Under the pieces are notes generated by a model. It was not told the origin of the DNA. It was given only the letters and a program-made list of their open reading frames with translations, and did no database searches. The position numbers and the translations under genes were made by a program. From a virus, in IMG/VR virus record IMGVR_UViG_3300009132_000005, positions 3,530 through 67,529 of that record: a DNA stretch of 64,000 nucleotides. One strand, 5' to 3'. Shown in pieces: positions 9,101-52,247 of this stretch (position 1 is the stretch's first letter; each line of letters opens with the position of its first letter).

Positions 9101-12100
9101 TCACCTTTAAGGTTTTTATATTTTAATTCAACTATATCAACCATTGTTGATGAGTTATCTGCTAGATGTTCGCCTTTCATTTTACCTAAAGGACCATCTG
9201 TTATTGTTATATATTTCAAACCTGTTAAAGCTCTAAAACCTTCAGCGGCATTAGTCTGTAGCTGTAACATGTTTATCATTGAAACATCTGATATACCACT
9301 TTTTAAAAGCTTTTTAATCAAATATTTAAATAATATTTTATTTTGCGCATTAGCTTCTTTTATCTCTGTTTGAAGTTTTTCATCAAGCAGTTGTTCTATT
9401 TTTTCACTAGCTGTTGTATCGCTTTGTAATATTTTATCAATCCTAAAAAATAAACTACCAGCTATTTTTATATTCATAGGTCTGACTTTACTAATGTCAA
9501 AACCTTCAGGAAATTGAGCTTTAGTATTATTTAGTTTAGATTTTATATCTTGTAATCTTTGGTAAAAATCACCTGTAACACCATCCTGGTAAACAGTAAG
9601 ACCTTTACCTTCTTTCATTTTTCCTAACTCTTCAAGAGTTACATTTAGATCTTCAGCAACTGTTTGTTTTAATGATAATGTAGCTTCTTTATCTTGTTTC
9701 GTTTTAGCGGGGTCTAACACTCTGTTTATAAAACCTAATGCATCAAAGCCTATAACCTCTAAAATTTCAGCACCAAACTCATTTGCTAATATTTCCATGT
9801 CATCAGCAAATACTTTTCTAAGATCATAATCTGATTTGCTAGTTAATGCATTTTTGACTTGATCTTTAACTTCTTGTGGTATTGCTGGATTTTTTTGTAT
9901 TGCTTGCAAGAACTTATAAACTTTTTGATCTTGTATTAAACCACTTTCATATATGTCTTGTACTATTTTAGCCATTTCAGGCGTAAATTCTTTATTGTAT
10001 TTTTCGTTTAGAACACCTTTGCTATCAAAAACAGAATCATAATCACCTTTCATTACTATTTTAGCTAGCTTAGTAAGCTTTTGTAATCCACCAGCTTCAC
10101 TAACACTAAACGCTAATTCAGGATCTCTTTTTATATTTTCAGCTAATTTACCAGTTACACCATCATACATAGCTTGCATGCTGTCAGAATTTTCCATAGC
10201 TGTAAACGTAGCATCAAGTATTAGTTCATTCGCTAAAGCATCTTTTAATGCTTTATGCGTTGTTTCTCTACCATCGTATTCTACTACACCTGTTAAATTA
10301 CCATCTTTGTCAACATATCCTTGCTTGTCACCTCTACCTCTTATTTTTAAACCATCTACAAAAGCTTTTTCAACAAAATCAATAAACTCTGCTTTTTCAT
10401 CAGGTTTCATCTTGCTCATGTCTTTTGGTTTGTATATTTTATTACCAGCTTTTTCATCACTAACAAACTGCCCTTGATCACTTTGTTGATTTGCTTTTGA
10501 TACATCAACATTCATAGTACCAATAACTTCACTTAAAAATGGAAAACTTGATCTATGTTTTACAGCAATAAGGTTTATTAAACTTTGTAATGTTTCTTCG
10601 TTTCTTATAAAATCTTTAAATTTCTTTGATTTTTGAGCACCTATAATATTAGTTATATCAGCTCTTAAGTTTTTAGCAGCATAATCCTGTATTATAGTTC
10701 TGGCTCTTCTAGGGTTTAAATCTAGTAGTTCTTTTACTGTTTTACCTTTAAATTTACCTTTAGTATCTTTTAAATTTAAAAACATTTCAGTATTAACCTT
10801 TAATGTTTTGTCGTATAGTTGACCACCAAATTCTATGTTTAAAAGTTTTCTAAACTCATTAAAGTCTTGTGTAGTTTTATTTATATCTAAACTACTATCA
10901 GTTGTGCTTATTTCAAAAGGTTGACCTGATGATTTTATTTCATCTATAGAATCTACAAACCTACCATATGTTGGTGATTTTTTTACAAAATCTAATATTC
11001 TTAAATCTACTTGGCCTTGTCCTTGAATAGATGATTGAATCCATTGGTTTATATTAGTACCAACATTAGGGTTCCATCTTGATATTATTTCTGCTAAACC
11101 TCTTGACCTAGATTTTTCACCTAATACAAATTCAGACGTTAAGTTATCTATTTCATAATCATCTGTATTTACAGACATCGTTTGCTTAAACTTCTTTCTA
11201 ATAAAGTTTTCCCAATAAAGACCTATCATTTCACCTACGTCTTTCTTTTCGTCTTTACTTAGTTTGTTCCAGTCAACAGCATTTATAATATCTTCAGTTT
11301 GTTCAAATAAAGTTTTGTCATCAGTCATTGAATCTGCTTTCTCATCTATAGATAAGCCATCATCAACAGGTGTGTTTTTATATTTATCAAATACTTCTTC
11401 TATTCTTTTCTTATCTAGATCAGTTTTCTTTAACGTACCGTTATCTAGCTTTTGTCCTAGTGTTATTAAAAAATCTATAACATCATTAGGTTTAGACATA
11501 GTATCTCTATCAATACCAGTAAAACCACTAATCCACCTACCAAAAGCACCCATAAATTGTTTATCTTGTGGTCTTGATAAATCCATTTGACTAGCTCTTT
11601 CAATAAAACCAGCAATTATTTCAGCAGGTATAAAACCTTTTTCACCGACTTGTACTCTTTGTGAAAGATCAAAACCAAACATATCATTATAAACTCTTGG
11701 TTGGTTTTTAAGTAAATATTCAACTATATCATTAGCTATAGCAGCTTCTACAGCAGCTTTCTTAGCTTTACCCTCTTTAGTTCTACCATCACCAAATAAT
11801 TTTAATACTTTATCCCAGAGTATCAAGTGACTAGTTTCGTGTGTTTTAGTTTGAGTTCTACTATTTTTTATTTCGTTTTCTTCTATAGTAGCAAACCTAT
11901 ATTCACCATTTACTCTAGCAGCTATACCATTTCTAGTTCCTTTTTTTGCATTTTTTATAGATTCCCAGTATTTTCTTTCACTTTTACTTAAGTTTTCTTT
12001 AGCTAATTCTTCATTAGCTCTATTAACAGCATCAGCTTCAGTTGGAAATATATCCGATGTGTAGTTTAACGACATTTCTTTATCCGTTAATATTTTATTT

Positions 12101-14646
12101 ATAGCTGCCTTGTTTGCTGCAACTTGTTCTGTGTTGTATATTAACTCAGCTTCTTTGTTTATAGCAGATTCATTAGTGTTTTTACCTTCACTTTCAAGGT
12201 TTTTTCTAGCTTGTTTTAATATTCTATCATGTCTATCAGGATCAACACCTTTTAGTAAAGTAAATCTATTACCATATTTATCAGGGCTTTTAAACTCATC
12301 TAATATACCTTCTAGTCTTTTATATTTTAAAGACAAAGCATTTATCATTGTCTCTTTTTTCTTTTCACTTATATCTGTTCTAGCTTGTATAGCCAAAGCT
12401 TCAGCTCTAAGATCATATTGAGCGCCAACAATAGACTTGAAATCTTCATAAACATTGTAACCCATTTTAGCACTCCATGTTTCATTAAAACCATCTATTT
12501 GTTTTACTGTATCATCTTGTAGCTCTTTTAATTCTTTTCTTATTTCTACAGCTCTTTTTGTTCTACCTAACTTATTATCTTTTAACTGCTGATATTCTTG
12601 TTTTAGCTCACGCATTGTTTGAGCATTATTTAATATACCTTCAACAACCTCTTTATTAGCCATAGATCTAGCTGCAGCACCTGTAACAACACCACCAGCA
12701 CCCATAACACCACCAAAAAATCCACCAGCAAAAGCAGCGTGATCTACATTTTCCAATATAGGTCTACCAGTAAAAATATTCTGAAAAATACTAGTTAAAC
12801 CCTCTGTTGTTGATTCAAGTCCAGCACCAATGGCAAACTCTTTAAAAGCGTTCTTCTTAAAATATTGTTTACCACTTAACATGGTTAAATCATCACTTTG
12901 ATTTTTTAATAAAGTTTTAAAACCACCACTCAAAGCTGTTTTACCTATAATAAACGTAGGTGCAACACCTAAAGCACCTTCAGCTAAACCAAAACCAGTT
13001 CCAACAAGCATTTTATGTAAATCCGATGTGTTTTTATCGTTGTAATCAAGGTCATCTAATCTAGTTAAATATTCTTGATATGTCATATCACCTATTTGTT
13101 GACCCGCTGATTGAACACCTATAACACTACCAGCAGCTGCTGCTGATAAATATGTTCCAGCACCAAGAACACTAGCCGCACCACCAGTTGCTATCATACC
13201 AGCAAATATAGGTAACTGCCTACCACTTTCTTCAAATAAAAATCTTCCAAAGTTATTCAAACTATCAAAAGCATCATCAAAATCTACATCTTTTCTAAAT
13301 TTTTTTCTTTCAGCATCCATACGTTTTCTTCTTTCTTGACCATAGTCTTCGAAAAAAGTAAATTCATTTCCTTCTTTTGGATTATAAACAAGAGTAGATC
13401 CTCCACCCGGTAATGAAACACCTTCAAGATCTCTAAGTATATTCACACCAGCTTCTAAATATTCCATACCACCTGTTAATAAACCACCACCTACGTCTAG
13501 TATTTGAAAACCTAACTTATCTGCCATGCTAAAGTTTAATTTACTTATAGCTAGCTCTTCTTGTGCGTCTCTACCTATTTCAGATCTTTTTAATAATTCT
13601 TCGTATTGGTTTAATAAATCATCTTTAAGTACATTATAATTATGTATTGATGATTGCAGGTCATCATATTGTTCTTTTGATATAAATCTACCATCTAATA
13701 ATTGTAATTTTTCTGACCCTTCAGGTATATTAAATTTATAATCTGGGTTTTTAATATTTTCTTCAAACTCTGCAATTTTAACCGCATCTTCTCCGTTAGA
13801 TATACCAGTAGCTTTTATTTGTAACTTGTCATACTCTGTTTTTATAGTTTTTGCGTCGTTACTTTTTAATCTAACATCTTCATTATATATATTTATAGCT
13901 TTTCTTTCACCATCAGAAAAACCAGCCCAAGCACGATCAATTTCGCTGTCTATAGCTTTTTGTCTATCTAAAATGTTTTTTTGGAATTTAAAATAGTCTT
14001 GGACAAGATCTATTGGGGGAACTTCGCCTTCCCATGTTCGGAATTGTTCAGGTAGTGTTGATAAATTTGTTTTACCGTTTTCTTCTTCAGAGTTCTTTTT
14101 TCTTTCTGTAAATTCTGCTGTTATAGCATCTAACTCTTCTTTGTATGGATATACTGTGTTTTTTTCCCTAGTACCAAAATAATCATAAGAACCATAATTA
14201 GAGCCTGTTTTTGGCGATGATGATATTTCATAAGGTTCAAAACTTAAATTTTCGTTAGCAATTTTAGCTTCTTCTATTTTTCTTTTTAACTGAGGATTTA
14301 TATCTGGGTTATTTATTTCACCATAAGATAAGTAACCAATTACACCATCATCATACTCAACTGGCACGTTTCTTATATCATAAGTATCTTCGTACTGCTC
14401 TTCTTCTGTATACCCAATTGTTACCTGAGTACCACCTTTTGTTATTCTTGTTTTTGGTTTACTAGGTTTTGTATATACTGTTCTTTTTCTATCAGGATTT
14501 ATATTTCTACCCGGCTCTAGGTCTCTTTCTATCTCTCCAGTTTCAAACGCAGAAAATGGATCATCATTTACAATTTCTGTATTTACTGTAAAAGCTGCAA
14601 AAGGATCATTAGTCTCGCTGCCATCAAGCGTACTATTGTTCATCAT
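6187..14646 (-). CDS. Giant internal virion/ejected polyvalent-type protein with HExxH metallopeptidase and HAD phosphatase domains
   Basis: 2819 aa, downstream of tail genes. Gly/Ala hydrophobic stretch, THETSH motif, VFDFDDTL..LTAR..K..FADD HAD motifs. Confidence 0.7.
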   Translation of the reverse strand: MMNNSTLDGSETNDPFAAFTVNTEIVNDDPFSAFETGEIERDLEPGRNINPDRKRTVYTKPSKPKTRITKGGTQVTIGYTEEEQYEDTYDIRNVPVEYDDGVIGYLSYGEINNPDINPQLKRKIEEAKIANENLSFEPYEISSSPKTGSNYGSYDYFGTREKNTVYPYKEELDAITAEFTERKKNSEEENGKTNLSTLPEQFRTWEGEVPPIDLVQDYFKFQKNILDRQKAIDSEIDRAWAGFSDGERKAINIYNEDVRLKSNDAKTIKTEYDKLQIKATGISNGEDAVKIAEFEENIKNPDYKFNIPEGSEKLQLLDGRFISKEQYDDLQSSIHNYNVLKDDLLNQYEELLKRSEIGRDAQEELAISKLNFSMADKLGFQILDVGGGLLTGGMEYLEAGVNILRDLEGVSLPGGGSTLVYNPKEGNEFTFFEDYGQERRKRMDAERKKFRKDVDFDDAFDSLNNFGRFLFEESGRQLPIFAGMIATGGAASVLGAGTYLSAAAAGSVIGVQSAGQQIGDMTYQEYLTRLDDLDYNDKNTSDLHKMLVGTGFGLAEGALGVAPTFIIGKTALSGGFKTLLKNQSDDLTMLSGKQYFKKNAFKEFAIGAGLESTTEGLTSIFQNIFTGRPILENVDHAAFAGGFFGGVMGAGGVVTGAAARSMANKEVVEGILNNAQTMRELKQEYQQLKDNKLGRTKRAVEIRKELKELQDDTVKQIDGFNETWSAKMGYNVYEDFKSIVGAQYDLRAEALAIQARTDISEKKKETMINALSLKYKRLEGILDEFKSPDKYGNRFTLLKGVDPDRHDRILKQARKNLESEGKNTNESAINKEAELIYNTEQVAANKAAINKILTDKEMSLNYTSDIFPTEADAVNRANEELAKENLSKSERKYWESIKNAKKGTRNGIAARVNGEYRFATIEENEIKNSRTQTKTHETSHLILWDKVLKLFGDGRTKEGKAKKAAVEAAIANDIVEYLLKNQPRVYNDMFGFDLSQRVQVGEKGFIPAEIIAGFIERASQMDLSRPQDKQFMGAFGRWISGFTGIDRDTMSKPNDVIDFLITLGQKLDNGTLKKTDLDKKRIEEVFDKYKNTPVDDGLSIDEKADSMTDDKTLFEQTEDIINAVDWNKLSKDEKKDVGEMIGLYWENFIRKKFKQTMSVNTDDYEIDNLTSEFVLGEKSRSRGLAEIISRWNPNVGTNINQWIQSSIQGQGQVDLRILDFVKKSPTYGRFVDSIDEIKSSGQPFEISTTDSSLDINKTTQDFNEFRKLLNIEFGGQLYDKTLKVNTEMFLNLKDTKGKFKGKTVKELLDLNPRRARTIIQDYAAKNLRADITNIIGAQKSKKFKDFIRNEETLQSLINLIAVKHRSSFPFLSEVIGTMNVDVSKANQQSDQGQFVSDEKAGNKIYKPKDMSKMKPDEKAEFIDFVEKAFVDGLKIRGRGDKQGYVDKDGNLTGVVEYDGRETTHKALKDALANELILDATFTAMENSDSMQAMYDGVTGKLAENIKRDPELAFSVSEAGGLQKLTKLAKIVMKGDYDSVFDSKGVLNEKYNKEFTPEMAKIVQDIYESGLIQDQKVYKFLQAIQKNPAIPQEVKDQVKNALTSKSDYDLRKVFADDMEILANEFGAEILEVIGFDALGFINRVLDPAKTKQDKEATLSLKQTVAEDLNVTLEELGKMKEGKGLTVYQDGVTGDFYQRLQDIKSKLNNTKAQFPEGFDISKVRPMNIKIAGSLFFRIDKILQSDTTASEKIEQLLDEKLQTEIKEANAQNKILFKYLIKKLLKSGISDVSMINMLQLQTNAAEGFRALTGLKYITITDGPLGKMKGEHLADNSSTMVDIVELKYKNLKGEALDEAIDDILEYHDQWIGNRSQLDFVDVFGKNNPNKDLRIRLYPNPSQVFTFDMKPAETLIKQREDDIKLKVEQKKTKNARNTLEMANSLSGKRKGISVFDFDDTLAKSNSKVGVTMPDGSKRRINATEFALESADLEAAGAKFDFSEFNKVIDGKKGPLADLALKRQGKFGSGDIFVLTARPQEAAYAIHAFLKGIGLNIPIENITGLEDGRPQAKADWIINKVGEGYNDFYFADDAIKNIKAVKDALKDVDVKGRVELAFSESINYEDKINEIIAHQSGVSKDARFSRVVAQRKGKQSKFYILPSTAQDFEGLLYYMAGKGEQGSKDLAWLQNNLFKPYMKAVDAINIAKTSIISDFKKLNKNYKAESDKLTKLMQNGNFTYDQGIRVYIYNKQGQNIPGISKRDLNSILKEINSDPRLKQYADAIQNIGSGKDGVYPAPKDGWEMNSVLADLDNLTRKVGRKRFLEDWLKVIEATFTPDVFNKLEAIYGSTYVDALKDALWRMENGTNRPSGANATTNAWLNWVNNSVGTIMFFNRRSALLQGISFINFVNWSDNNPLKAAIAYGNQPQFWQDFAMIWNSPKLKQRRRGLQTDLQWQEIANAAKNSKNRFNSAISYLLQIGFTPTQLMDNFAIAAGGAPFYRNRFNTYKKQGLTDAEAKQKAFDDFSEIAEKTQQSGDPALISQEQASPLGRLVLAFQNVTQQMVRLQNKAGTMLIRRQKYEGMTQLQSDFTNVSKIVYYGAIQNFIFTFLQNAMFGLLPGFEGDEKDDLMKQIESENAKKARQINNMIDTLLRGSGLKGAVVSTIKNAIMQYQKQDAKGFRADHTYTLIELLNISPPIGSKARKVYSAIQTRKFNRDLLEERGFEITADGRINLAPSYEIIGNLASAFLNLPLDRVVSELDGIVEATDSRNRAWQRIALALGWRTWDVGAKNEEEDLMQIFIDLDKKQKKRDEKNKKKDPFAAFDN

Positions 14647-17080: not shown

Positions 17081-20000
17081 TTAAGGGACGTAATCTAAAT
17101 CTACATCTATTGTAAATGATACATCTGATGTTGATGATATTACTTCGTCTGTTTTTGCTGTCCAAGTATAGTGTAAATCTTGTGATGGGGCTACGCCAAC
17201 TAAACTTGTTTTTGTAATTGTTAATTCTTGTGTTTGATGTATTGCTGAGCTAGATGCTGATGATATACTTAAAGTTATTTGCTGTAATGAGTTGCCATGG
17301 AAGTTACCATACATAACACCAGTACCACTTGTTAAACTAGTAAGTGATAAAGTACCAACATCTATAGCTTTTACATTTGTACCACTATTTCCATTACCAT
17401 CATTGTAACTAAACCTGTGATCACCTACTATTATACCACTTGCATCACCTGTTACTGTAACTGATAGTAATCTTGAACCACCACCAGATCCACCAGAAAC
17501 ACTAAGAAAATCGTTTAAAGGTAATGTACTAGTTAAATCGCCATCACCATACTTATTGATAAACATATCACCAGTTATTGTAACCGTTTTTGGTGACGCT
17601 GAGTTATTTATAGTAACAACAGGTAAGCCAAAATCTAATTCAAAATTGTTTGTAAATATAGAGTGATCTTCATCTGTTGGTGTTGATACAAAACCTGTAA
17701 AATCATCAATTTCAGGATCTCTAGTTTTACTTATATTGTTAGTAGCTGTAGCAGTTAAACTTAAAGCTATTTTTGAAAAGTCAGATCCTTCAACAGGATA
17801 TGCACTTGCTGTGTATGTTTTAGTTGCTGCGCTCGATGTTATTGTAAAATCAGCTGTTTGAGAAGCATTTAAGCTTACAGTAACGTCAGCAAATTGATTT
17901 ATATAAAATGGGTTTTGTACTACATTAGAAGAGTTGTATACATTTCCTTGTAAAACAGGATCTCCAGCACTTGAAGGAGTTATAGGTAATAAAGTAGTTT
18001 CGCCTATTGCTTCTATTTGTATGTAATATCTTCTAGTCACAGTAGTTTCTAAAAACGGTATTGTAACAGAGTAAACACCAGTTGATGGTATTTCTAAATT
18101 TGTTTCAGATCCAACAAACGTTGTACCGTTCCACCACTCTGTAAATGTTATTGTTGTGCTACTTATAGTCTGTGCACTTGAGAGCGTAACCGATGTACCA
18201 TTAACACTAACAACAGTAACAGTACCACTTATACCAGTACCTGTAACTAACATACCGTTGTGTATGTCATTGTTTGCAGCTGTAAGCGTTAAAGTTGTAC
18301 TTGAACCTGAAGTGCTAGCTGTTGAAGTTGTAGAGTTTTTAAATCTAAAATCTGCACCAACCGCACCAAAAACTTTTACTTCTTTATCTGTTGCAAATCT
18401 AGGAACAACATTACCATTAACAACTCTATATCCTGTAATTTTATTAGTATCTGCAGCATTTTCTAAAACAGAACTAGCGTTAAATATAATTTCATCATCA
18501 TTAGTATTAGATGCAGGATATTTATAACTTATGCTATACACACGTACGTGTACGTCTTCTAAAGTTTTACTATCTGATCCAATAGTTATGTTAGTATTAG
18601 TTGTATCTTTATCTTGAAAAGTAATTATGTATTCACTTTCTGGATCCTCATCTTGTCTTGTTATTTTAAAGTCTGGTTGTTCAGTAAAATTGTAACCAAG
18701 ATCTAATGTTAATGTAACTGTAGCTGCTAAAGTTGTAGATGTATAATTACTAGGTAAACCTGTAGCTGAGTTGGTTGGTTGAGCTGTAGCGTTACCAGAA
18801 CCAGCATAACTAATTACAGCAGTTACATTTGAATCTGTTTGTTCTTTTATATTAAGATCGTTTAATAAATATTGTTTTAAAACACCATCACCTGTAACAG
18901 CTAAACTTATAGTTAAATCACTACTAGGCATGTTAACACCATCTGTAAAGTTTATTGTTGCTATTACATTATCACCACTTTGAGCGAAAGCAACACTATC
19001 TACATAAGTTCCAGTAGTACCTACGCTAAGATCACCAGCTGTCAACGTGCTACCTGTATTTGGTGTTATTAATATAGTTATACTAGAATTTGTACTGTGT
19101 ATTTCTGTACCTATTGTAACGTCAAATGTAGCGCCTGGGTTTGTTGTATTAGCAATACCAGTTAAAGCTACATTAACGGTTCTATCAGCTAAAGAAGTAT
19201 CACCAGATATATTAGTTAGCTGACCAACACCTTGAACATTAAATTCAGTAGAATCTAAGTTAGCTAAAGTTGTTGCATCACCTTTTATATTATTATAATA
19301 TCTACCTTCTTTTTTCTTAAACTCTTTTACAAAACCTTGTTGTAAGTCAGTTTGTATATATTCAGTATACCAACCTTTGGTATTTGTAGATGTAGCATTA
19401 CCATAATCATTTGTATATACTCTAGAGGCAGAACCTCCATAGTTTAATGTTTTAAAGCCTTTAATTGTTTCAGGCATTTCGTTTATTAAAAACGTTACAG
19501 ATGAATCATATTGTACACCATAAAAATTATTTCTAGTATCATTAGTGTGAACGTGTAATTCACCATTTTTTATAGAATAATACTTATTATTTAAAGACAA
19601 AGCAGCTTCAGGTATAAATGATTTAAAACTAGGAAAACCTCTAACTTTTTCATCAAAAGAAACTGTTTGATCACTTAATGTTAAATTATATAAACCTTTT
19701 GAACCATCATAACTACCTAATATTAATGTTGAATTAGGTAATGTGTCTTTAAAAAAGTCTCTCATGCCATGCTCTGATATTGCTGATAAACCATCTCTTG
19801 ATAATCTTAATACAGCACCTCTTGATTTATCTACAAAATAACATCTATAAGCATACGATGAAAATGACTCAGGGTTTTGTGATATACCATATTCACCTAT
19901 AAAAGGTATTGTTTGGCCTAAAACTCTATTTGTTGCTGTTAATTGTGGATTACCACTAGCTTCAAACAAAGCGTCTTTATTAGCTAATACTTTTAAAACT

Positions 20001-23000
20001 TTATCTTCACAAAATACTATTAGATCTGTATTTCTAGCGTGTAACTTTTGTATACTACCGTAATGAGGATTAAGATCTTTTGTTATAGCTTCACCTTGTA
20101 TAAATTGATTTAATCTATTTACACCTGATGTTGAATTAAATATACCAGAGTATATTAAACCATTTTTTCTTCTTTCTTTTTTATATGGTTCATCTAAAAC
20201 AGCAGAAGCTTTAACACCTTTATCTATTCTAGGTGCGTTATAATCATCATTTATTCTATCAGACTCAACACCGTTACCAAAAGAGTAACAGTTTTTAAAA
20301 TCTAAAGCGTGTGTAGATCCGTGTTGTGCTATTGGTCTTGAAACACCTGTTTCAAAATATATATCTAAATCTACAGATTCTTTTGGCTCTGTTTCCCACA
20401 CAGCCGGGTTATCAGATGTTAATACTTCTACATCTGTTGTTATAACGTTTTGTAAAATTTGTATTTCATCTGCAAAATTAGAAGCACTACCTGATGAAGG
20501 ATATGTAAACGAGTCTTCATATGGTGTGCCATTTTTATAATGCTCAAAAGTTATATTATATTGTCTTCTTTTACTTGAAGCTAATCTTCTTCTGTTTCTT
20601 CTATATTTATATTCTATTTCACAAGCTGTAACTTTATATATTTCGCCTAAAGCATCAGTACTACTACCTTTAAATCTAAACAAAGTACCTGATGTACTTA
20701 TTGATTTTAAAAAATTATTTATAGTATTTGCTTTGTCAAAATCTTTACTACCAGACTTAGGCGATGCGGTATATAATATACGCATTGTATGAGATCCTAA
20801 TTTAGGATGCCCATTGTTAGCTTGTGTTATTTTTCTTCTTTTTGCCTCTGTATCAAACCAAGATGCTTCTTGTGTACCATCACCAGGTCCTGTGTTTTGT
20901 GCATTACCAAATATAGTTCTAGCATCCGATATACCATACTCTTCATCTTCATCTGGAAAAGATGCTATAATGTTTGTATCAAAATTACTATCTCTATTTA
21001 TTTTTACAAAAAACCTACCGTAAAACTCTGCTTTTCTTTCAAATTTCTCTTCAAAAAGTATTACGTCAAATTGAGTTCCAGAGCTTATAGTTGATACTAC
21101 CGTGTCACCAGTTTTTATAGGTTCAGCTAAAGTTATTTTATATATGTGTTTAAAACCTGTGCTACCAGTGCTATCTTCTTCACCTGTAGGACCACCACTT
21201 ACAACTTTATACTTGTCTGTTACAACACCACCTACAGATATTTGAATAACAGCATCAGAAGAAAAACCTTCACCAAAACTAGGATTTACTTGTGGATCTG
21301 GTCCTCTAAATTCAAAAGATATACTACCTACTTGAGGTATGTTAGATGATCTAGCTTTTACAGATCCATTACCTACAGCTCTTTGTTTTAATTTTAAAAA
21401 GTCAGGCGCATCATTAGATATATCTAATATTTTATATCTTGATTTAGTAGCTACAAACTCGTCAGAGTCATGTTTCTTTTTTAATATCAAATAAGTTTCT
21501 TCATCAACTTTGTTTCTTTCAGATGATGGAAAACTTAACCAAACATTACCATCTTCAGCTAGATAATATCTATCCATAGCTAAATTGTAATATTCGTTTG
21601 ATGTTTCTTTTATGTAGTATTTAAAATGTGTAGCCCAGTCTGGTGGCTGATTATTTAAAGTAACACTTATTGTATTTACTGTTTTTGCATAATCTTTACT
21701 AGTTTGTTTTGAAGCACTAGCACTAGTAAATACAGGTGATTGTCTATTATATTTATCTATATATACAACACCTGCTTGATATGTTCTTAATGATTTTAAT
21801 GATAACTCAGGTTCCTTTACTGTTGTTATACCAGACTGTGATATAGACATGCTAATATCAGGTAAGTTAAAATCAGGTATATCATAATTTTGTAAATAGT
21901 TACCATAAATAAGTCTGTTAGCTGTAACCTCTTGTGATAAAGCTTGTCTTGGTACGTTATCCCATGGCCTTAATATTTGATTAGGTTCTACAACTTTTGT
22001 AATTATTTCTGACTCTAACTTATACTCTGTTGGAAAAGTGCCATCAGAGGCATATTTAAGCGTGTCTACGACGTATATATTGTTGTTGTTTGACTCTTTA
22101 TATAATATATCAACTTTTTCTACATCAACAGGTCTTGATTCAGTTATATTTATTGTCAACTGTCTAAGGTTATTGATCATACCATCATTATAACCATCTG
22201 TAGATAAATATTCAAATGTGTCAGGTAAAAAAGCTAATTCACTAAAAGGAGAGAAAGTAGAATATTGTCCGTTATAATATTTCCATCTATAACCAAATCT
22301 TACAAACTTCTTTTCAAATAAAACACCTTCTTCACTCAATATAGCTTCCCATTGTAAAGGAACATAAGGTATTTCTACAGGAATACTTTGTATTGTACAT
22401 GTAAATACATTACTAGCGCTTATAGCGTTTATTAATAATTTTATTTCGTAAGTTTCTTGTTGACCAAGTTCTTCGTATACAGTTGTACAAGTTATTATAT
22501 CACCTACTAACCAATTAGGTAGAGGTGAAAATGTTAAAGATAAAGAAGTTCCAGCAGCTTTAGCAACACCTTCTGTATCTGTAAACGTTGTGTTAACAGC
22601 ATTACTTATACTAACACTGTTAGTACCAGTACCGTTACCACCTCTTGTAGAGCTACTCATTGTTAAAGTTGGAGCACTCATCGGCGCTAATTTAGCAACA
22701 GTTATATGTTCTTCTAAAAAAGCAGAAGCTGCAGATAATTCTGAGCTAGGTATTTTTTTACCTGTGTATTTTGTATGTGTTGTAAAATTATCAGCACAAC
22801 CAGATTTAAATACGTCTATTTCTATTTGTTTAGGTTCTTTTTCATTATCAGTCCACATTAATATATTTTCTAAAACATTTATACCAGTTATATATGTATT
22901 TGTTTTAAAATTTAATATATTGTTAGTATCAACTAATACAGGTGATATTATACCTTTTAAATCATCGTACTCAGCTATACAATCAGCTTCATCTGCTTTT

Positions 23001-23296
23001 ATAAACCAATATATTTTATCGTTTTCGTTATTTAATTTAGAACCAACACAAATAGCGTTTGTTAAACCAAAGCTAGTACCAGACCAATTACTGGTTATAC
23101 TTTGTGAGTTTGAATCATAAACTTTACCAATAACTTTAGTAGTACCTTTAATGTTTTGCACAGTGCCGACATCATCACCATCTGACGTTGACATTTCTAT
23201 ATTCAACGCGTCTCTGTATTCTCCATTAGGTACTAATCTCTCGTCCAGGTCTTTATTCATTTTACCTGATCGAAAATAATGTTTTATATCTGGCAT
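17081..23296 (-). CDS. Tail stabilization/nozzle protein (P22 gp10/crAss-like) with Ser/Thr-rich beta C-terminal extension
   Basis: GKMNKDLDERLVPNGEYRDALN N-terminus and NGVESDRI.DD.N, LIYSG, YGISQNPESF, RGAVLRLS.DG motifs. Confidence 0.75.
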   Translation of the reverse strand: MPDIKHYFRSGKMNKDLDERLVPNGEYRDALNIEMSTSDGDDVGTVQNIKGTTKVIGKVYDSNSQSITSNWSGTSFGLTNAICVGSKLNNENDKIYWFIKADEADCIAEYDDLKGIISPVLVDTNNILNFKTNTYITGINVLENILMWTDNEKEPKQIEIDVFKSGCADNFTTHTKYTGKKIPSSELSAASAFLEEHITVAKLAPMSAPTLTMSSSTRGGNGTGTNSVSISNAVNTTFTDTEGVAKAAGTSLSLTFSPLPNWLVGDIITCTTVYEELGQQETYEIKLLINAISASNVFTCTIQSIPVEIPYVPLQWEAILSEEGVLFEKKFVRFGYRWKYYNGQYSTFSPFSELAFLPDTFEYLSTDGYNDGMINNLRQLTINITESRPVDVEKVDILYKESNNNNIYVVDTLKYASDGTFPTEYKLESEIITKVVEPNQILRPWDNVPRQALSQEVTANRLIYGNYLQNYDIPDFNLPDISMSISQSGITTVKEPELSLKSLRTYQAGVVYIDKYNRQSPVFTSASASKQTSKDYAKTVNTISVTLNNQPPDWATHFKYYIKETSNEYYNLAMDRYYLAEDGNVWLSFPSSERNKVDEETYLILKKKHDSDEFVATKSRYKILDISNDAPDFLKLKQRAVGNGSVKARSSNIPQVGSISFEFRGPDPQVNPSFGEGFSSDAVIQISVGGVVTDKYKVVSGGPTGEEDSTGSTGFKHIYKITLAEPIKTGDTVVSTISSGTQFDVILFEEKFERKAEFYGRFFVKINRDSNFDTNIIASFPDEDEEYGISDARTIFGNAQNTGPGDGTQEASWFDTEAKRRKITQANNGHPKLGSHTMRILYTASPKSGSKDFDKANTINNFLKSISTSGTLFRFKGSSTDALGEIYKVTACEIEYKYRRNRRRLASSKRRQYNITFEHYKNGTPYEDSFTYPSSGSASNFADEIQILQNVITTDVEVLTSDNPAVWETEPKESVDLDIYFETGVSRPIAQHGSTHALDFKNCYSFGNGVESDRINDDYNAPRIDKGVKASAVLDEPYKKERRKNGLIYSGIFNSTSGVNRLNQFIQGEAITKDLNPHYGSIQKLHARNTDLIVFCEDKVLKVLANKDALFEASGNPQLTATNRVLGQTIPFIGEYGISQNPESFSSYAYRCYFVDKSRGAVLRLSRDGLSAISEHGMRDFFKDTLPNSTLILGSYDGSKGLYNLTLSDQTVSFDEKVRGFPSFKSFIPEAALSLNNKYYSIKNGELHVHTNDTRNNFYGVQYDSSVTFLINEMPETIKGFKTLNYGGSASRVYTNDYGNATSTNTKGWYTEYIQTDLQQGFVKEFKKKEGRYYNNIKGDATTLANLDSTEFNVQGVGQLTNISGDTSLADRTVNVALTGIANTTNPGATFDVTIGTEIHSTNSSITILITPNTGSTLTAGDLSVGTTGTYVDSVAFAQSGDNVIATINFTDGVNMPSSDLTISLAVTGDGVLKQYLLNDLNIKEQTDSNVTAVISYAGSGNATAQPTNSATGLPSNYTSTTLAATVTLTLDLGYNFTEQPDFKITRQDEDPESEYIITFQDKDTTNTNITIGSDSKTLEDVHVRVYSISYKYPASNTNDDEIIFNASSVLENAADTNKITGYRVVNGNVVPRFATDKEVKVFGAVGADFRFKNSTTSTASTSGSSTTLTLTAANNDIHNGMLVTGTGISGTVTVVSVNGTSVTLSSAQTISSTTITFTEWWNGTTFVGSETNLEIPSTGVYSVTIPFLETTVTRRYYIQIEAIGETTLLPITPSSAGDPVLQGNVYNSSNVVQNPFYINQFADVTVSLNASQTADFTITSSAATKTYTASAYPVEGSDFSKIALSLTATATNNISKTRDPEIDDFTGFVSTPTDEDHSIFTNNFELDFGLPVVTINNSASPKTVTITGDMFINKYGDGDLTSTLPLNDFLSVSGGSGGGSRLLSVTVTGDASGIIVGDHRFSYNDGNGNSGTNVKAIDVGTLSLTSLTSGTGVMYGNFHGNSLQQITLSISSASSSAIHQTQELTITKTSLVGVAPSQDLHYTWTAKTDEVISSTSDVSFTIDVDLDYVP

Positions 23297-46515: not shown

Positions 46516-48076
46516 TGTCTAATCTTATGTTTGAAATTATACAATCTGCAGAAAATATTGTTTTTGCGACGCTAACTGCATTTTTTAGCGCTGTTTTTGT
46601 AACTAAAGCAGGATCTACTATACCAGAGTCAACCATTTTTACTAGTTTTCCACAAGTTACGTCAAATCCCATGCCTTTTTTATCAGGAATATCATAATTT
46701 TCTATACCTGCGTTGTCCATTATGGTAAAAAATGGCGATTTTATAGAATTTACTATTATTTCTTCACCAATATTTTTAGGTTTTATACTTTTTGCTGCAT
46801 TTAACAGACAAATTCCACCACCTGGAACAATACCTTCTTGTAAAGCTGCTTTAACAGCGTAAATAGCATCCTCAACTCTATCTTTTTTCTCTTTTAATTC
46901 AATTTTAGAGTTAGCACCAACCTTTATAACACCAACAGAACCGCTTAACATAGCTAATCTTTCTTGTAATTTCTTTTTAAAGAAAGGATCTTTGGTTTCA
47001 GGTATCTTTTTTTCTATTTCTTTTACCCTGCTTTCAACATCTTCGTTTAAAACGCCAGTTGTAAGGACTGTAGTTCTGTTATCTGTTACAGATTTCACTA
47101 CTTCACCTAAACAATCTGGCTGGATTAGATCGAGATCGTCTCCTAGTTCTTCATCTATTACTCTAGCACCAGTTAAAAGTGCTAAATCTTCAATAGTATC
47201 TCTTTTTCCTGCACCAAAACCAGGTGTATCAACAATATTTACTTTAATATTGCCTTTAACCTTGTTCATTAATAGTGCAGATTTTACTTGTGTGCTAACA
47301 GAAGCTACAATAAGTAGCGATCTGTTTTGCTTTATTACATGTTCTAATACATTTTGTATCTTTCTAATACTAGGTATTTCCGATGCAACTATTAATATGT
47401 ATGGATTTTCAAGCTCACATAGCTGTCTATCCTTATTTGTCATAAAATGAGGTGATGTTAGTTTAGAAGCTATTTGCACTCCTTCAACAATATCAGCATA
47501 AGTTACATCAGTTTCGCTCTCTTCCATCAAAACTACACCATCTTTACCTACTTTATTATATGTACTAGCTATTAGTTCACCTAATTCTTTATCATTATTA
47601 CAGCTTATTACTGAAACATGATTTAAAGTTTCACCGGTAACAGGTGTTGTATTGTCATTTATATACTCTACTACTTTTTCGTAACCTGACTGTATACCTT
47701 CTTTTATATTTCTTACACTTTCTTGTTCATACTCAGCATTACTAAATGCATTTTGTAATAGTGATTCAGCAAGGACGATAGCTGTAGTAGTACCGTCACC
47801 TGCTTCTTTCACTGTGTTTTTAGAAGCTTCTTTAATTAAAGTAGCACCTATATTCTCAACTGGATCAAATAATACTACAGAGTCTGCTACTGTAACACCA
47901 TCTTTTGTAACCAGTGGTCTACCGAAAGTGTCTTCATATATAACACACTTACCGGAAGCTCCTAGGGTAGATTTAACAGCTCTCGCTAGTTTATCTACAC
48001 CTTTCATAATTTTACCTTTAGCATCGACGCCAAAGTTAAGATCTTTTACGATCTCGCTTGGTTGACTATATTCCAT
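46502..48076 (-). CDS. groEL: Chaperonin GroEL
   Basis: VKSTLG..G, TKDGVTVA, AGDGTTTA, PGFG, KDRVEDA, GIVPGGG, GIVDP. Confidence 0.97.
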   Translation of the reverse strand: MEYSQPSEIVKDLNFGVDAKGKIMKGVDKLARAVKSTLGASGKCVIYEDTFGRPLVTKDGVTVADSVVLFDPVENIGATLIKEASKNTVKEAGDGTTTAIVLAESLLQNAFSNAEYEQESVRNIKEGIQSGYEKVVEYINDNTTPVTGETLNHVSVISCNNDKELGELIASTYNKVGKDGVVLMEESETDVTYADIVEGVQIASKLTSPHFMTNKDRQLCELENPYILIVASEIPSIRKIQNVLEHVIKQNRSLLIVASVSTQVKSALLMNKVKGNIKVNIVDTPGFGAGKRDTIEDLALLTGARVIDEELGDDLDLIQPDCLGEVVKSVTDNRTTVLTTGVLNEDVESRVKEIEKKIPETKDPFFKKKLQERLAMLSGSVGVIKVGANSKIELKEKKDRVEDAIYAVKAALQEGIVPGGGICLLNAAKSIKPKNIGEEIIVNSIKSPFFTIMDNAGIENYDIPDKKGMGFDVTCGKLVKMVDSGIVDPALVTKTALKNAVSVAKTIFSADCIISNIRLDNASS

Positions 48077-48763: not shown

Positions 48764-48950
48764 AAAAAAACACGTTAGATATAATGGGGTATAGGGTTGC
48801 CCCTACCCTACGCTCGACCTGCTGTTACAGGAAAACGCATTATTTCAACCGGGCCCCCATGTTCTATATAGATTATCCACGTGTATTCGTGTTTAGCATG
48901 TGTATAGCATCACTACACTTCACTACTTATTTATTAATTCACTCACATTA

Positions 48951-48975
48951 TAAATACGACTATAAATGGATAATA
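48951..48975 (+). promoter_or_regulatory. Early promoter-like motif, copy 1
   Basis: TAAATACGA-ctataaat-GGATAATA. Confidence 0.7.
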
Positions 48976-49113
48976 GATATGTATTTAATAAGTAATAATA
49001 ATGACATATTTCACTCACATAATTAAACAAACTAAATTAGAAGTCGCGAGACAGTGTGGAATACTACTAACTAATTTTATACTAATAAATAAACTATCCA
49101 CTTTTACCCAATA

Positions 49114-50459: not shown

Positions 50460-50658
50460 AGATTATCCAGCAGACAAAATAGCAGCAAAACTCAAACAAG
50501 TTGAAGAGTTTGAAGCTAAATACGGTGAATCTACACGTACTATTGCATGGAAAAAGTGGTGTAATGACATCAACTATCGCAAACGTGAGTGGCAATTCAG
50601 GCAAGGTGTTGCAGAATATGCACTAAACAATGCACATAAAGCATTTATGGCGGGATAG
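50443..50658 (+). CDS. Early hypothetical protein
   Basis: Likely start MKLMYKDYP. Stop lies inside the tRNA 5' end. Confidence 0.55.
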   Translation: MKLMYKDYPADKIAAKLKQVEEFEAKYGESTRTIAWKKWCNDINYRKREWQFRQGVAEYALNNAHKAFMAG

Positions 50659-50721
50659 AGCAGGTGGTAGCTCGCGAGCCTCATAAGCTCGAGGTCGAAG
50701 GTTCGACTCCTTCTCCCGCAA
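50649..50721 (+). tRNA. tRNA-Met(CAT), initiator-like
   Basis: Cloverleaf: GGCGGGA/TCCCGCA, D stem GAGC/GCTC, anticodon CGAGC-CTCATAA-GCTCG, T arm GAAGG-TTCGACT-CCTTC. CCA not encoded. Confidence 0.9.
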
Positions 50722-50741
50722 CTAATTTAAATTTAATAACT

Positions 50742-51182
50742 ATGAGTAAATATACTTGGCGACAAGAACAGCAGATGCTATGTGACTCGTTCGCAAGAGC
50801 ATTATTAGTAGAGCACAATATAAAAGAAGTGACTACACAAAGACAAGCTAAAAATGGTACAAGAGAATTTGAGTTTCCAGTACCCGCTAGATCAGCTTTC
50901 TATGGTAATAAACTACATTATTCAAAAGAAAGACTAAGATTAGCAGTATACAAAACAGGTTATGTAAGAAATTGTAACAGTTGTTCTTCAAACTATCAAC
51001 TAAACAAAACATACAAAAGAGAAACAAGAACTACTTTCTTTGATACATCAAAAGGTGGTTTATACACTAGCTCTTATAGAAGTATAGCTAGACAATTAAT
51101 CTACAGCGAGTTTGCTAGATTAAACTATATGCTTCAGTATTATCTAAAGAATCACAATATAAATACGAATAAAGTTGGATAA
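50742..51182 (+). CDS. Early hypothetical protein
   Basis: Start MSKYTW. The longer ORF-track start runs through the tRNA. Confidence 0.65.
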   Translation: MSKYTWRQEQQMLCDSFARALLVEHNIKEVTTQRQAKNGTREFEFPVPARSAFYGNKLHYSKERLRLAVYKTGYVRNCNSCSSNYQLNKTYKRETRTTFFDTSKGGLYTSSYRSIARQLIYSEFARLNYMLQYYLKNHNINTNKVG

Positions 51183-51184
51183 TA
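51160..51184 (+). promoter_or_regulatory. Early promoter-like motif, copy 4
   Basis: TAAATACGA-ataaagtt-GGATAATA, identical to copy 3. Confidence 0.7.
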
Positions 51185-51190
51185 TATACG

Positions 51191-51407: not shown

Positions 51408-51605
51408 ATGGCAGTAATAAAACAAATGAATATAGTAGCAGAAGAAATAGCTACAGACGTAATAGATAATATAAAACAACAGTGTGATTGGCAGATCGGC
51501 CAGTTTCTACCAGAATCTAGTGAGGGCAATGAAATATACGAAGCTCATAGTTACCTCGTAGAACTGGTCGTCAGTCACATATCTAAAAAAGTAAACAATG
51601 AGTGA
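51408..51605 (+). CDS. Early hypothetical protein
   Basis: ORF in a tightly packed operon. Confidence 0.55.
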   Translation: MAVIKQMNIVAEEIATDVIDNIKQQCDWQIGQFLPESSEGNEIYEAHSYLVELVVSHISKKVNNE

Positions 51606-51885
51606 TTCAATTAAAGCATGGCATGAAATGCAAGAAGAAAAATTAGTTTCGCTACAAGCAGATGAAGCTATAGCTGAAGAACTAGGAAGAGCTAAATATA
51701 TATTCTTACTAGATTTTGGAAACGGTAAAGTATATAGATATGACATTAGCTCATTATGTAATGAAAAAAATAAATGGAATCCAGACTCTGAATCTTGTGA
51801 AGCATTTTTATATGGTGCAGGTCACAAGCTTACTGACTGCGAGTGGATGGTAACAAACACTGGTGGTATAGAGTTCGGTAACTAA
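51598..51885 (+). CDS. Early hypothetical protein
   Basis: YIFLLDF..GKVYRY...GH....CEWM. Confidence 0.6.
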   Translation: MSDSIKAWHEMQEEKLVSLQADEAIAEELGRAKYIFLLDFGNGKVYRYDISSLCNEKNKWNPDSESCEAFLYGAGHKLTDCEWMVTNTGGIEFGN

Positions 51886-51905
51886 ATAAATTTCGCCAAG
51901 AACAT

Positions 51906-52085
51906 TTGTGGTGCTAAACAGCGAGGCCTGATAAATCATTGCTGCAGTGCGTACGGAAGTGTATTATGTGAGGCGGTTTAGCGGCGGCATACTGGTCACG
52001 TTAGATAAGAAAACGAAGACACTTATCAAAACAGAAAGAGTGGATAAATGACAATACTAGGTAACTACCAGTCCACAACTGCTGC
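51906..52085 (+). ncRNA. Unidentified structured RNA (~180 nt)
   Basis: Nested helices TTGTGG/CCACAA, GCTAAAC/GTTTAGC, CAGCGA/TTGCTG, ACTGGT/ACCAGT and GATAAG/CTTATC with GNRA loops, in GC-enriched intergenic DNA. Confidence 0.55.
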
Positions 52086-52090
52086 TTTAT

Positions 52091-52192
52091 GGGCGTGATA
52101 TGGTAAGAGTATGATTAAAGGCGTAATTCCTTAGCGGGATGTGAGAAACGGCTCGATGATTACTAACGCAGGTTCGACTCCTGCCACGTCCA
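52091..52192 (+). ncRNA. tmRNA-like/tRNA-like RNA 2 (Ala-type acceptor)
   Basis: GGGCGTG/CACGTCC-A acceptor with G3:U70 and GCAGG-TTCGACT-CCTGC T arm. No D stem or canonical anticodon arm. Confidence 0.65.
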
Positions 52193-52202
52193 CAATACAA
52201 TA

Positions 52203-52227
52203 TAAATACGACAATAGTAGGATAATA
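52203..52227 (+). promoter_or_regulatory. Early promoter-like motif, copy 5
   Basis: TAAATACGA-caatagta-GGATAATA. Confidence 0.7.
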
Positions 52228-52247
52228 TAATTAAATAATAAATAAAT

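Follow-up and report, generated by a model that had tools for sequence, protein, structure and literature searches.

A phage non-coding RNA with a conserved pseudoknot module next to tRNA-shaped elements

Ribonuclease P (RNase P) cuts any substrate with an acceptor stem and T-arm at its 5' end, and in the mammalian MALAT1/mascRNA locus a downstream tRNA-like element lets RNase P set the 3' end of the upstream RNA, which is protected by a compact structure. The RNAC and RNAD molecules of phage T4 are also matured by RNase P. The two are small stable RNAs from the tRNA region of that phage, and their roles are given as still unknown (PMC3014915, PMC9697503). Here we describe the stretch at positions 51902-52086 on the + strand of a viral window of 64,000 nt (bases 3530-67529 of the 67.5-kb IMG/VR virus record IMGVR_UViG_3300009132_000005, which has direct terminal repeats). 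The stretch is a conserved, structured non-coding RNA made of two phage-specific modules, A and B. We regard it as probable, though by no means secure, that the 3' end of module B is produced by an RNase P cut at the tRNA-like element which follows it, and that the product is a cargo acting in trans.

T4 RNAC and RNAD are the closest analogues in kind, being phage-encoded, beside tRNA-shaped genes and without an assigned function. All 40 aligned copies of module B likewise lie beside tRNA-shaped genes on the same strand. The two are likened by description only, and differences lie in the host phylum, the pseudoknot and the modular build, as far as these are known for T4. The likeness to MALAT1/mascRNA is that the closing stem of module B ends 4 nt before the tRNA-like element, although the cleavage is here predicted only, and the MALAT1 system is eukaryotic and nuclear, has a triple helix and shows no homology. 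GOLLD and ROOL are far larger than this RNA and their Rfam models gave no match here. A catalogue of 8495 candidate structured RNAs has been drawn from IMG/VR by Fremin et al. 2023 (PMC10690425), and its candidates are similar to the present RNA in being phage-borne, supported by covariation, of unknown function and in some cases near tRNAs. No description of the motif was found in the literature on phage structured RNAs and tRNA-like leaders, a search in which the candidate list of PMC10690425 was not compared. The RNA appears to be a new phage family outside Rfam 15, with a link to tRNA mimics, and it may be an unnamed candidate in the PMC10690425 catalogue.

For the structure of module B, pairs were counted in an alignment (A1) of 40 copies, comprising 36 distinct rows and 827 cells. 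In the helices 92.1% of the cells were paired, versus 33-52% when the 3' partners were slid by one to three columns, and 11 of the 23 pairs changed on both sides; none of 500 shuffles matched the observed values. With the alignment as its sole input, RNAalifold recovered the outer stem and helix S2, and 10 of the 17 pairs it predicted carried compensated changes. An earlier sequence-only reading of this DNA had proposed an unrecognised structured non-coding RNA, and this proposal stands on the lack of an Rfam 15 match together with strong covariation, which is present in both modules among the collected homologues. The complementary strings which that reading listed are all found where it placed them, but they do not all pair in the way it suggested.

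The closing stem of module B (stem O) reaches 12 pairs in relatives, six of which change on both sides, and it is also formed in the single-sequence fold of the module. The strings GGCGG and CTGCT had been read as a possible pseudoknot; they do pair, as part of the 8-bp stem O, while the pseudoknot itself is formed elsewhere. Helix S1, which corresponds to the ACTGGT/ACCAGT helix already seen in the letters, was paired in 100% of cells over the 36 distinct rows, and its middle pair, which covaries, is free of mismatches, being U-A in 16, A-U in 13 and U-G in 7. Comparison of L036 with L208 and of L119 with L175 (numbers of this form denote related loci) places the origin of the A-U form in at least two backgrounds. 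In helix S2, 94.4% of cells were paired and four of the six pairs change on both sides; columns 149 and 183, for example, hold U-A in 20 rows, C-G in 15 and G-C in one. S1 and S2 cross, therefore a pseudoknot lies within the closed stem. An outer helix between TTGTGG and CCACAA, which had been thought to close the whole stretch, is not supported, because CCACA covaries with GTGGA at 52040-44, TTGTGG is the conserved hexamer of module A and each module is also found without the other.

Between S1 and S2, the 28 long-form copies have a segment of 28-113 nt, where the 12 short-form copies have only 4 nt. In the window this segment contains hairpin H, the GATAAG/CTTATC helix of the sequence-only reading, which holds as a variable feature: RNAfold places a stem of unrelated sequence at the equivalent site in most of the long forms, and the 12 short forms are without it.

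Outside the helices, 38 columns are invariant and a further 14 nearly invariant across the 40 copies. The conservation of module B appears to exceed what pairing requires, since its loops are invariant in genomes in which the neighbouring protein is only 49-80% identical, and the invariant loops argue for a specific partner. The best complement within the window of the 22-nt loop between S2 and S1 is a 13-mer at 47649-47661, on the strand that is not transcribed there; on the sense strand of the GroEL gene the same positions hold a 13-nt string identical to the start of the loop. As a target of the loop this 13-mer was judged a chance match, with an expectation of about 1 in 10 by a rough composition-based estimate.

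Module B is compact and pseudoknotted, has many unpaired bases that do not vary and lies beside a predicted processing site. These traits would also suit a small ribozyme that cleaves itself, or an RNA that senses a ligand, by which the tRNA-like element would be freed or gated with no need for RNase P. Rfam 15 (4227 models, ribozymes and riboswitches included) gave nothing over 51900-52090 at the gathering score and nothing credible at E up to 10, and there was no match on module B in six relatives at E up to 1. There is also no downstream gene for such an RNA to regulate, and we consider this explanation highly improbable.

The relatives were collected from IMG/VR. The two flanking small proteins led to 51 related loci. 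When 51886-52200 was compared with them by blastn, the 3' end of the tmRNA-like (transfer-messenger RNA-like) element proved widespread, and about eight of the loci also held parts of the stretch upstream of it. In a deposited phage collection (50,697 genomes), blastn and megablast gave one 28-nt match at chance level and none, respectively. A first collection pattern, built on the GC-rich (guanine- and cytosine-rich) 5' strand, returned 118 stretches, mostly from unrelated GC-rich phages, and was dropped because it was too loose. The pattern used instead was built from the conserved AT-rich loop and returned 45 IMG/VR stretches, many of them on contigs of about 60-70 kb. Together with the window and the loci collected before, these 45 stretches yielded 43 distinct copies of module B, of which the 40 that could be parsed end to end make up A1. 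A covariance model of module B (R1) scores the window copy at 120.6 bits, and the alignment of module A (A3) holds 17 distinct copies.

With R1, one copy of module B was found in the window and further copies in 8 of 44 neighbour-derived loci, each of which covers only about 3 kb on either side of the neighbour gene. The model also matches three contigs from cellular genomes (L213-L215). A pattern scan of 185,579 species genomes likewise gave three matches, all on small contigs of metagenome-assembled genomes (MAGs), of 608, 629 and 8559 nt. The MAGs of L213, L214 and L215 are labelled Flavobacteriales, Aliivibrio and Gammaproteobacteria; these contigs are most likely pieces of phage DNA that ended up in the MAG bins and are therefore no evidence of a host. 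R1 found no copy in 140 of 141 Flavobacteriales genomes, and the one match was the same 629-nt MAG contig. In 30 Flavobacteriales tmRNA loci, searched on both strands with the filters off, it found nothing (best E 0.49). Module B is therefore not a recognisable host RNA or a recognisable piece of the host tmRNA and, as far as sequence searches can tell, it is restricted to phages.

The sequence-only reading had also pointed to a small open reading frame (ORF), of 16 codons, starting at ATG 52048, loosely similar to an ssrA tag, and a related possibility is that the conserved feature of the stretch is a short protein, MTILGNYQSTTAALWA. The ATG is present at the homologous place in 28 of the 40 copies, among which the N-terminal MTILVNY is similar, while the other 12 copies read AGC or ACG and have no start. 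Every frame continues into the tRNA-like element, where the positions of the stops vary, and the C-terminal halves differ as well. Most of the codons lie in the covarying helices S1, S2 and O, and the substitutions track base-pair compensation, not amino-acid similarity; the Q/L difference between the peptides, for instance, is the compensatory change in S1. A conserved start, frame and stop, with substitutions that spare the protein, as would be seen in a small-protein gene, are not found. The mini-ORF is not the conserved feature of the stretch, and the reading as a micro-protein is close to excluded.

Module A was treated in the same way. In its 17 copies 87.3% of the cells were paired and 8 of the 10 pairs change on both sides, which was reached in none of 500 shuffles. 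When the partners were slid by +2 or -2 columns, pairing was still seen in 63-74% of cells, because helix P1 is often a GU/AC dinucleotide repeat; forms of P1 seen elsewhere are GUGUGU/ACACAC, AUAUGU/ACAUAU, AAAUGU/ACAUUU, GUUUGU/ACAAAC and GCGUGU/ACACGC. Two further helices from the sequence-only reading fared less well. The CAGCGA/TTGCTG helix is shared only with L209, the sole other locus with that arm, where it is kept through one G-U pair, and GCTAAAC/GTTTAGC is not supported, L209 having only its first half and L036 only its second.

The same reading had taken the whole stretch for a single junction of about 180 nt with several helices, where we find two modules. Module A lies within 300 nt upstream in 12 of the 37 copies of module B that have at least 150 nt of upstream sequence, and no module B is present within 250 nt downstream in 6 of 19 copies of module A. 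Modules A and B are independent units. The features of the locus are given in Table 1.

Table 1. Coordinates of the RNA modules and adjoining features in the window.
Feature	Position	Strand	Content or partner	Basis or remark
Module A	51902..51969	+	Helix P1, conserved loops, variable arm, GGAA hairpin	17-copy alignment
Module A, helix P1	51902-05 with 51966-69	+	ACAU with AUGU	Covariation
Module A, conserved hexamer	51906-11	+	(A/U)UGUGG	Common to 17 distinct copies
Module A, variable arm	51911-14 with 51949-52 (base); 51919-24 with 51939-44 (inner hairpin)	+		
Module A, invariant segment	51953-65	+	ACGGAAGUGUAUU; GGAA at 51955-58	Invariant
Module B	51980..52086	+	Closing stem, pseudoknot, variable hairpin, conserved loops	40-copy alignment A1
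Module B, closing stem O	51980..51987 with 52079-52086	+	AGCGGCGG with CUGCUGCU	8 bp; A1 columns 8-15 with 187-194
Module B, pseudoknot helix S1	51991..51996 with 52067-52072	+	ACUGGU with ACCAGU	Covariation
Module B, variable hairpin H	52004..52027	+	GAUAAG (52004-09) with CUUAUC (52022-27)	Flanked by conserved ACGUUAG and AAAACAGAAAG
Module B, pseudoknot helix S2	52040..52044 with 52072-52076	+	GUGGA with UCCAC	Crosses S1; covariation, RNAalifold
Module B, 22-nt loop between S2 and S1	52045..52066	+	UAAAUGACAAUACUAGGUAACU; holds ATG 52048	Nearly invariant (A1 columns A72-T94 mostly invariant)
Linker	52087..52090	+	UUAU	Between module B and tRNA-like element; predicted RNase P leader
tmRNA-like tRNA-like domain	52091..52192	+		Rfam tmRNA, 32.4 bits
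Promoter-like repeat	52197..52245	+	Copies at ~51154-51186 and 48945-48995	Starts next transcription unit
Upstream 95-aa ORF	51598..51885	+	Stop codon 17 nt before RNA start	ORF list

The element downstream of module B in the window is a tRNA-like domain (TLD) of tmRNA type. At 32.4 bits (E 2.9e-11), the match of the Rfam tmRNA model (RF00023) to 52091-52195 falls below the gathering score of 47. It includes the two ends of the model, and 51 nt stand for the 306-nt middle. The domain has the acceptor stem GGGCGUG/CACGUCC with G3-U70, a T-arm, the discriminator A and no encoded CCA, and the 51 nt form a closed hairpin insert instead of an mRNA-like part. G3-U70 is kept in 56 of 57 distinct relatives, and among the 57 the pair 4:69 is C-G in 34, A-U in 18, G-C in 3 and U-A in 1. 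The copies are 47-161 nt in total, with a closed-hairpin insert of unrelated sequence that ranges from almost nothing to more than 100 nt. In L044 the whole TLD is about 49 nt and its insert almost nil, and none of the TLDs encodes CCA. Mycobacteriophage DS6A has been listed as 'TLD only', in a paper which notes that tmRNA is strongly inhibited by a molecule of this kind, possibly through titration of SmpB (Hudson et al. 2014, PMC4131195). The DS6A molecule resembles the neighbour element at 52091-52192 and not the RNA under study, and the part of that paper available makes no mention of an upstream pseudoknotted leader.

The presence of such a domain, with alanine identity (G3-U70) and without an mRNA-like part, invites the explanation that module B is the detached mRNA-like or pseudoknot half of a two-piece tmRNA, which, jointly with the TLD and SmpB, would act on ribosomes that have stalled, the frame in B being the tag template. 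The sequence-only reading had likewise considered that the RNA might be a partner detached from this element. With its pseudoknot and the short open frame behind it, next to a tRNA-like domain of alanine type, the locus is reminiscent of PK1 and the tag region of tmRNA; the frame in the window reads GNYQSTTAALWA and one Flavobacteriales tmRNA encodes GNTSYALAA. In addition, stop codons occur in each of the three frames of the 22-nt loop, whichever form it takes (read by eye), and module A can sit in the TLD insert, as in L189. However, PK1 lies inside a loop closed by the TLD, whereas module B lies 5' of a complete, self-closed domain, its order of strands and loops differs, and R1 sees no similarity. 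The acceptor stem is within one piece, where pair 4:69 covaries, and the TLD has a hairpin of its own, unrelated in sequence, that closes it, therefore no helix holds two pieces together; no conserved complement was seen between B and the variable TLD insert either. Nearly the whole frame is base-paired (S1, S2 and O), and its peptide is unconserved and ends variably inside the TLD. Module B also precedes tRNA-Met, and R1 is blank in the 30 host-order tmRNA loci, which counts against the detached partner as well. ARAGORN called no tmRNA, either in the window or across 45 related loci, and Rfam at its gathering score likewise gave none for the window and 20 related loci; the Rfam tmRNA model matches the TLD only. 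Taken as an mRNA-like part of tmRNA, 51906-52085 was rejected: it lies wholly 5' of a complete domain and has no conserved tag peptide, and the G3-U70 domain belongs to its neighbour. We find a two-piece tmRNA very unlikely.

In all 40 copies of module B, a tRNA-shaped element, or a module preceding one, begins within a few bases on the same strand, and the linkers are short and A/U-rich throughout. The element is a TLD starting GGGNGUG in 17 copies, a TLD starting GGGAGUG in 15 and tRNA-Met in six, and in the remaining two a closed-stem module is followed by a TLD. In relatives without module B, other closed-stem modules lie ahead of the TLDs, or an ORF ends right before them, and the window itself has a tRNA-Met at 50649-50722, the only element called by Rfam 15 at the gathering score (50649-50721) and by ARAGORN, that is without module B. 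Thus the tRNA shape is needed by B and B is not needed by the tRNA shape. Because tRNA-Met occurs without B, and B never without a tRNA shape, we read the tRNA shape as a handle for B and not B as a helper of the tRNA.

Other tRNA-like elements were seen in the relatives and not in the window. These are a second alanine-type domain, which starts GGGUAACUAC and has the 3' strand UUAUCC, and a minimal acceptor/T-arm helix, GUCACAAUGG...GGUUCGAUUCCACUCGUGAC. These two kinds were noted at L006:536, L007:1562, L013:1446 and L016:290, and also at L012:662, L019:1231, L023:633 and L033:977.

The fixed short distance of a few A/U-rich bases to the tRNA-shaped element, in 40 of 40 copies, could also be explained by a leader that acts in cis. 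Module B would then guide the folding, timing or efficiency of RNase P processing, or insulate the element from the upstream translated mRNA, and would be discarded afterwards. TLDs that lack B and follow another closed-stem module or an ORF end directly also fit such a role. Against this, about 50 invariant unpaired bases and a pseudoknot exceed what insulation needs, and the same B serves two types of TLD as well as tRNA-Met, while tRNA-Met and some TLDs occur without any B. A leader of this kind is unlikely in our view, though it deserves more attention than the other alternatives.

A further possibility arises from the transcription context. A promoter-like repeat, with the shared core ATATAAATACGA...GGATAATA, stands ahead of three gene blocks on the + strand, and presumably resembles T7-type promoters; a similar string follows the tRNA-like domain in L023. 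Given the repeats at about 51154-51186 and at 52197-52245, the block of module A, module B and TLD ends a short unit of three small genes, and no intrinsic terminator was found on the + strand. Among four runs of RNA libraries, contigs of three cover A and B. One contig, 100% identical to the window, spans 51823-52027 and so runs from the upstream 95-aa ORF into the RNA, and in two further runs contigs of relatives cover 51894-52004, 52029-52085 and 51894-52056. The depth over A and B is about 18-41, versus 0-5 on most neighbouring genes (a 32-deep contig at 51696-51766 is the exception), and it is to be read as presence only because per-contig figures cannot rank genes. In one RNA run (X18), a 65-nt contig joins 52161, in the insert of the tRNA-like domain, to 51892, at the start of module A, via four extra letters; the probable source of this joint is a relative whose modules have been rearranged into a different order.

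Module B could be a cap at the 3' end of the upstream mRNA, in which the stem and pseudoknot, once RNase P has cut, keep 3'-to-5' exonucleases from advancing and so make the message more stable. Such a cap would resemble the ends of RNase-processed phage early mRNAs and the MALAT1 end upstream of mascRNA. The RNA-library contig that links the upstream ORF to A and B in the window's own sequence is in keeping with this, as is the next promoter-like repeat directly after the TLD. In L208 the closing stem begins a few bases from the stop codon of the upstream ORF and therefore lies within the 3' untranslated region of the upstream gene. Protection does not explain the invariant loop sequences, however, and the upstream gene varies among genomes, several copies of B being preceded by RNA modules and not by a gene. 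This makes the cap distinctly less plausible, and we hold it to be rather improbable.

We therefore return to the explanation of a trans-acting RNA released at a tRNA-shaped handle. Modules A and B would share a transcript with the small genes ahead of them and the tRNA-shaped element 4 nt downstream, and the RNase P of the host would cut at the 5' end of the tRNA-like element, giving the 3' end of module B. Such a release at the downstream element had been suggested by the sequence-only reading, and it fits the anatomy. The cut would leave a compact RNA of A and B, closed by stem O and with a 4-nt 3' tail. The tRNA-like element would be the processing handle and B, together with A, the functional cargo, which, as a guess, could be a stable RNA that acts in trans by binding a protein or another RNA through its invariant loops. 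The structure, its conservation, the restriction to phages and the constant place ahead of tRNA-shaped elements are observed; cleavage by RNase P, stability and action in trans are the steps that we infer.

Several observations weigh against this explanation. The support for S1 consists of one covarying pair and four invariant pairs. In the 12 short-form copies S1 is joined to S2 by about 6 nt, which would strain a coaxial pseudoknot (by geometric reasoning, not computed). Within the window no target or partner of the conserved loops was found. The tRNA shape of the neighbour is all that points to RNase P. The RNA-library contigs show no ends, strand or level, and DNA carry-over is possible; no RNA end was observed. 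In L189, module A lies inside the insert of the tRNA-like domain and would remain attached to the tRNA-like element, therefore release is not a general rule for every module. Finally, single-sequence folding is not better than that of shuffles. The whole 180-nt stretch folds at -38.1 kcal/mol with z = +0.83, 162 of 200 shuffles folding as well, and the modules alone have z = +0.81 (A) and z = -1.48 (B). A fold better than shuffles had been put forward as a check by the sequence-only reading, and by that measure alone the finding would fail; the case rests on covariation because the folding energy is no better than chance.

The genome of the window is AT-rich and densely packed, and encodes GroEL, a primase/helicase, a DNA ligase, a sigma-70-like protein, an ERF recombinase and two giant proteins. 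The RNA stretch was correctly noted from its letters to be GC-enriched, as GC content is 0.44-0.45 across 51800-52100 versus about 0.27-0.36 in most flanking bins. It had also been called free of ORFs, which is true of longer frames, while short ones of 34 aa on the + strand and 25 aa on the - strand are present in a mechanical ORF list. The upstream 95-aa ORF had no PHROG or Pfam match, and by tblastn it has relatives of 49-80% identity in 40 viral loci.

The giant ORFs lie on the - strand at 17081-23296 (2071 aa) and 6187-14646 (2819 aa). A crAss muzzle C-terminal domain in the 2071-aa ORF (Pfam PF25729, E 1.1e-09) suggests that the virus is a marine crAss-related podophage, with a genome of only 67.5 kb. 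By primase, the closest cultured relative is Cellulophaga phage phi10:1 (42% identity), and because of this the host of the phage is likely to be in the Flavobacteriia.

Apart from A and B, further closed-stem modules are found in the relatives. Module A is nested in larger conserved modules in L035, L049, L068, L119, L136, L176, L179 and L180, and also in L175, L189 and L202. One of these larger modules starts GCUAGACGAGUAGCUUAAU and ends AUAAGUGAAUAGCUAGC, and the other starts GAAAUAGGAGACAAU and ends AUUGCGUCACACUAAC; in L189 the latter, with module A inside, makes up the insert of the tRNA-like domain. Another module has the order CCCUCAC ... GGGAAUAC ... hairpin ... UUGAAAACAAG ... GUGAGGG, and it replaces module B, or stands between B and the domain, in L004, L009, L018, L034, L035, L044, L046 and L192. 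A different leader ahead of the tRNA-like domain is present at L005:1520-1620 and L014:2450-2545, with a perfect 13-bp closing stem (AAGCAGUAGUAAG/CUUAUUACUGCUU) and a loop that holds GGUAAAUGACGUG. This leader may be a distant variant of module B.

A more far-reaching possibility is that these marine crAss-related phages carry a kit of interchangeable stem-closed RNA modules (A, B and at least four more), placed ahead of or inside alanine-type TLDs which serve as universal handles for processing and as scaffolds. Module B and the TLD-only tmRNA mimic would then be a two-part device that seizes or blocks the ribosome rescue of the host (SmpB, tmRNA, RNase R), with B binding a host factor through its 22-nt loop. 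This is speculative, and we would not call it likely.

Phage non-coding RNAs are poorly known and few have a mechanism, and the signature of this one is unusually clear. The occurrence of the same modules free, nested or inside a tRNA-like domain suggests natural 'tRNA-scaffolded' RNA parts. If RNase P releases the RNA, it would be a case from a bacterial virus in which a tRNA mimic makes the 3' end of another RNA, and it could offer an entry to how abundant marine phages of Bacteroidota handle the translation quality control of their hosts.

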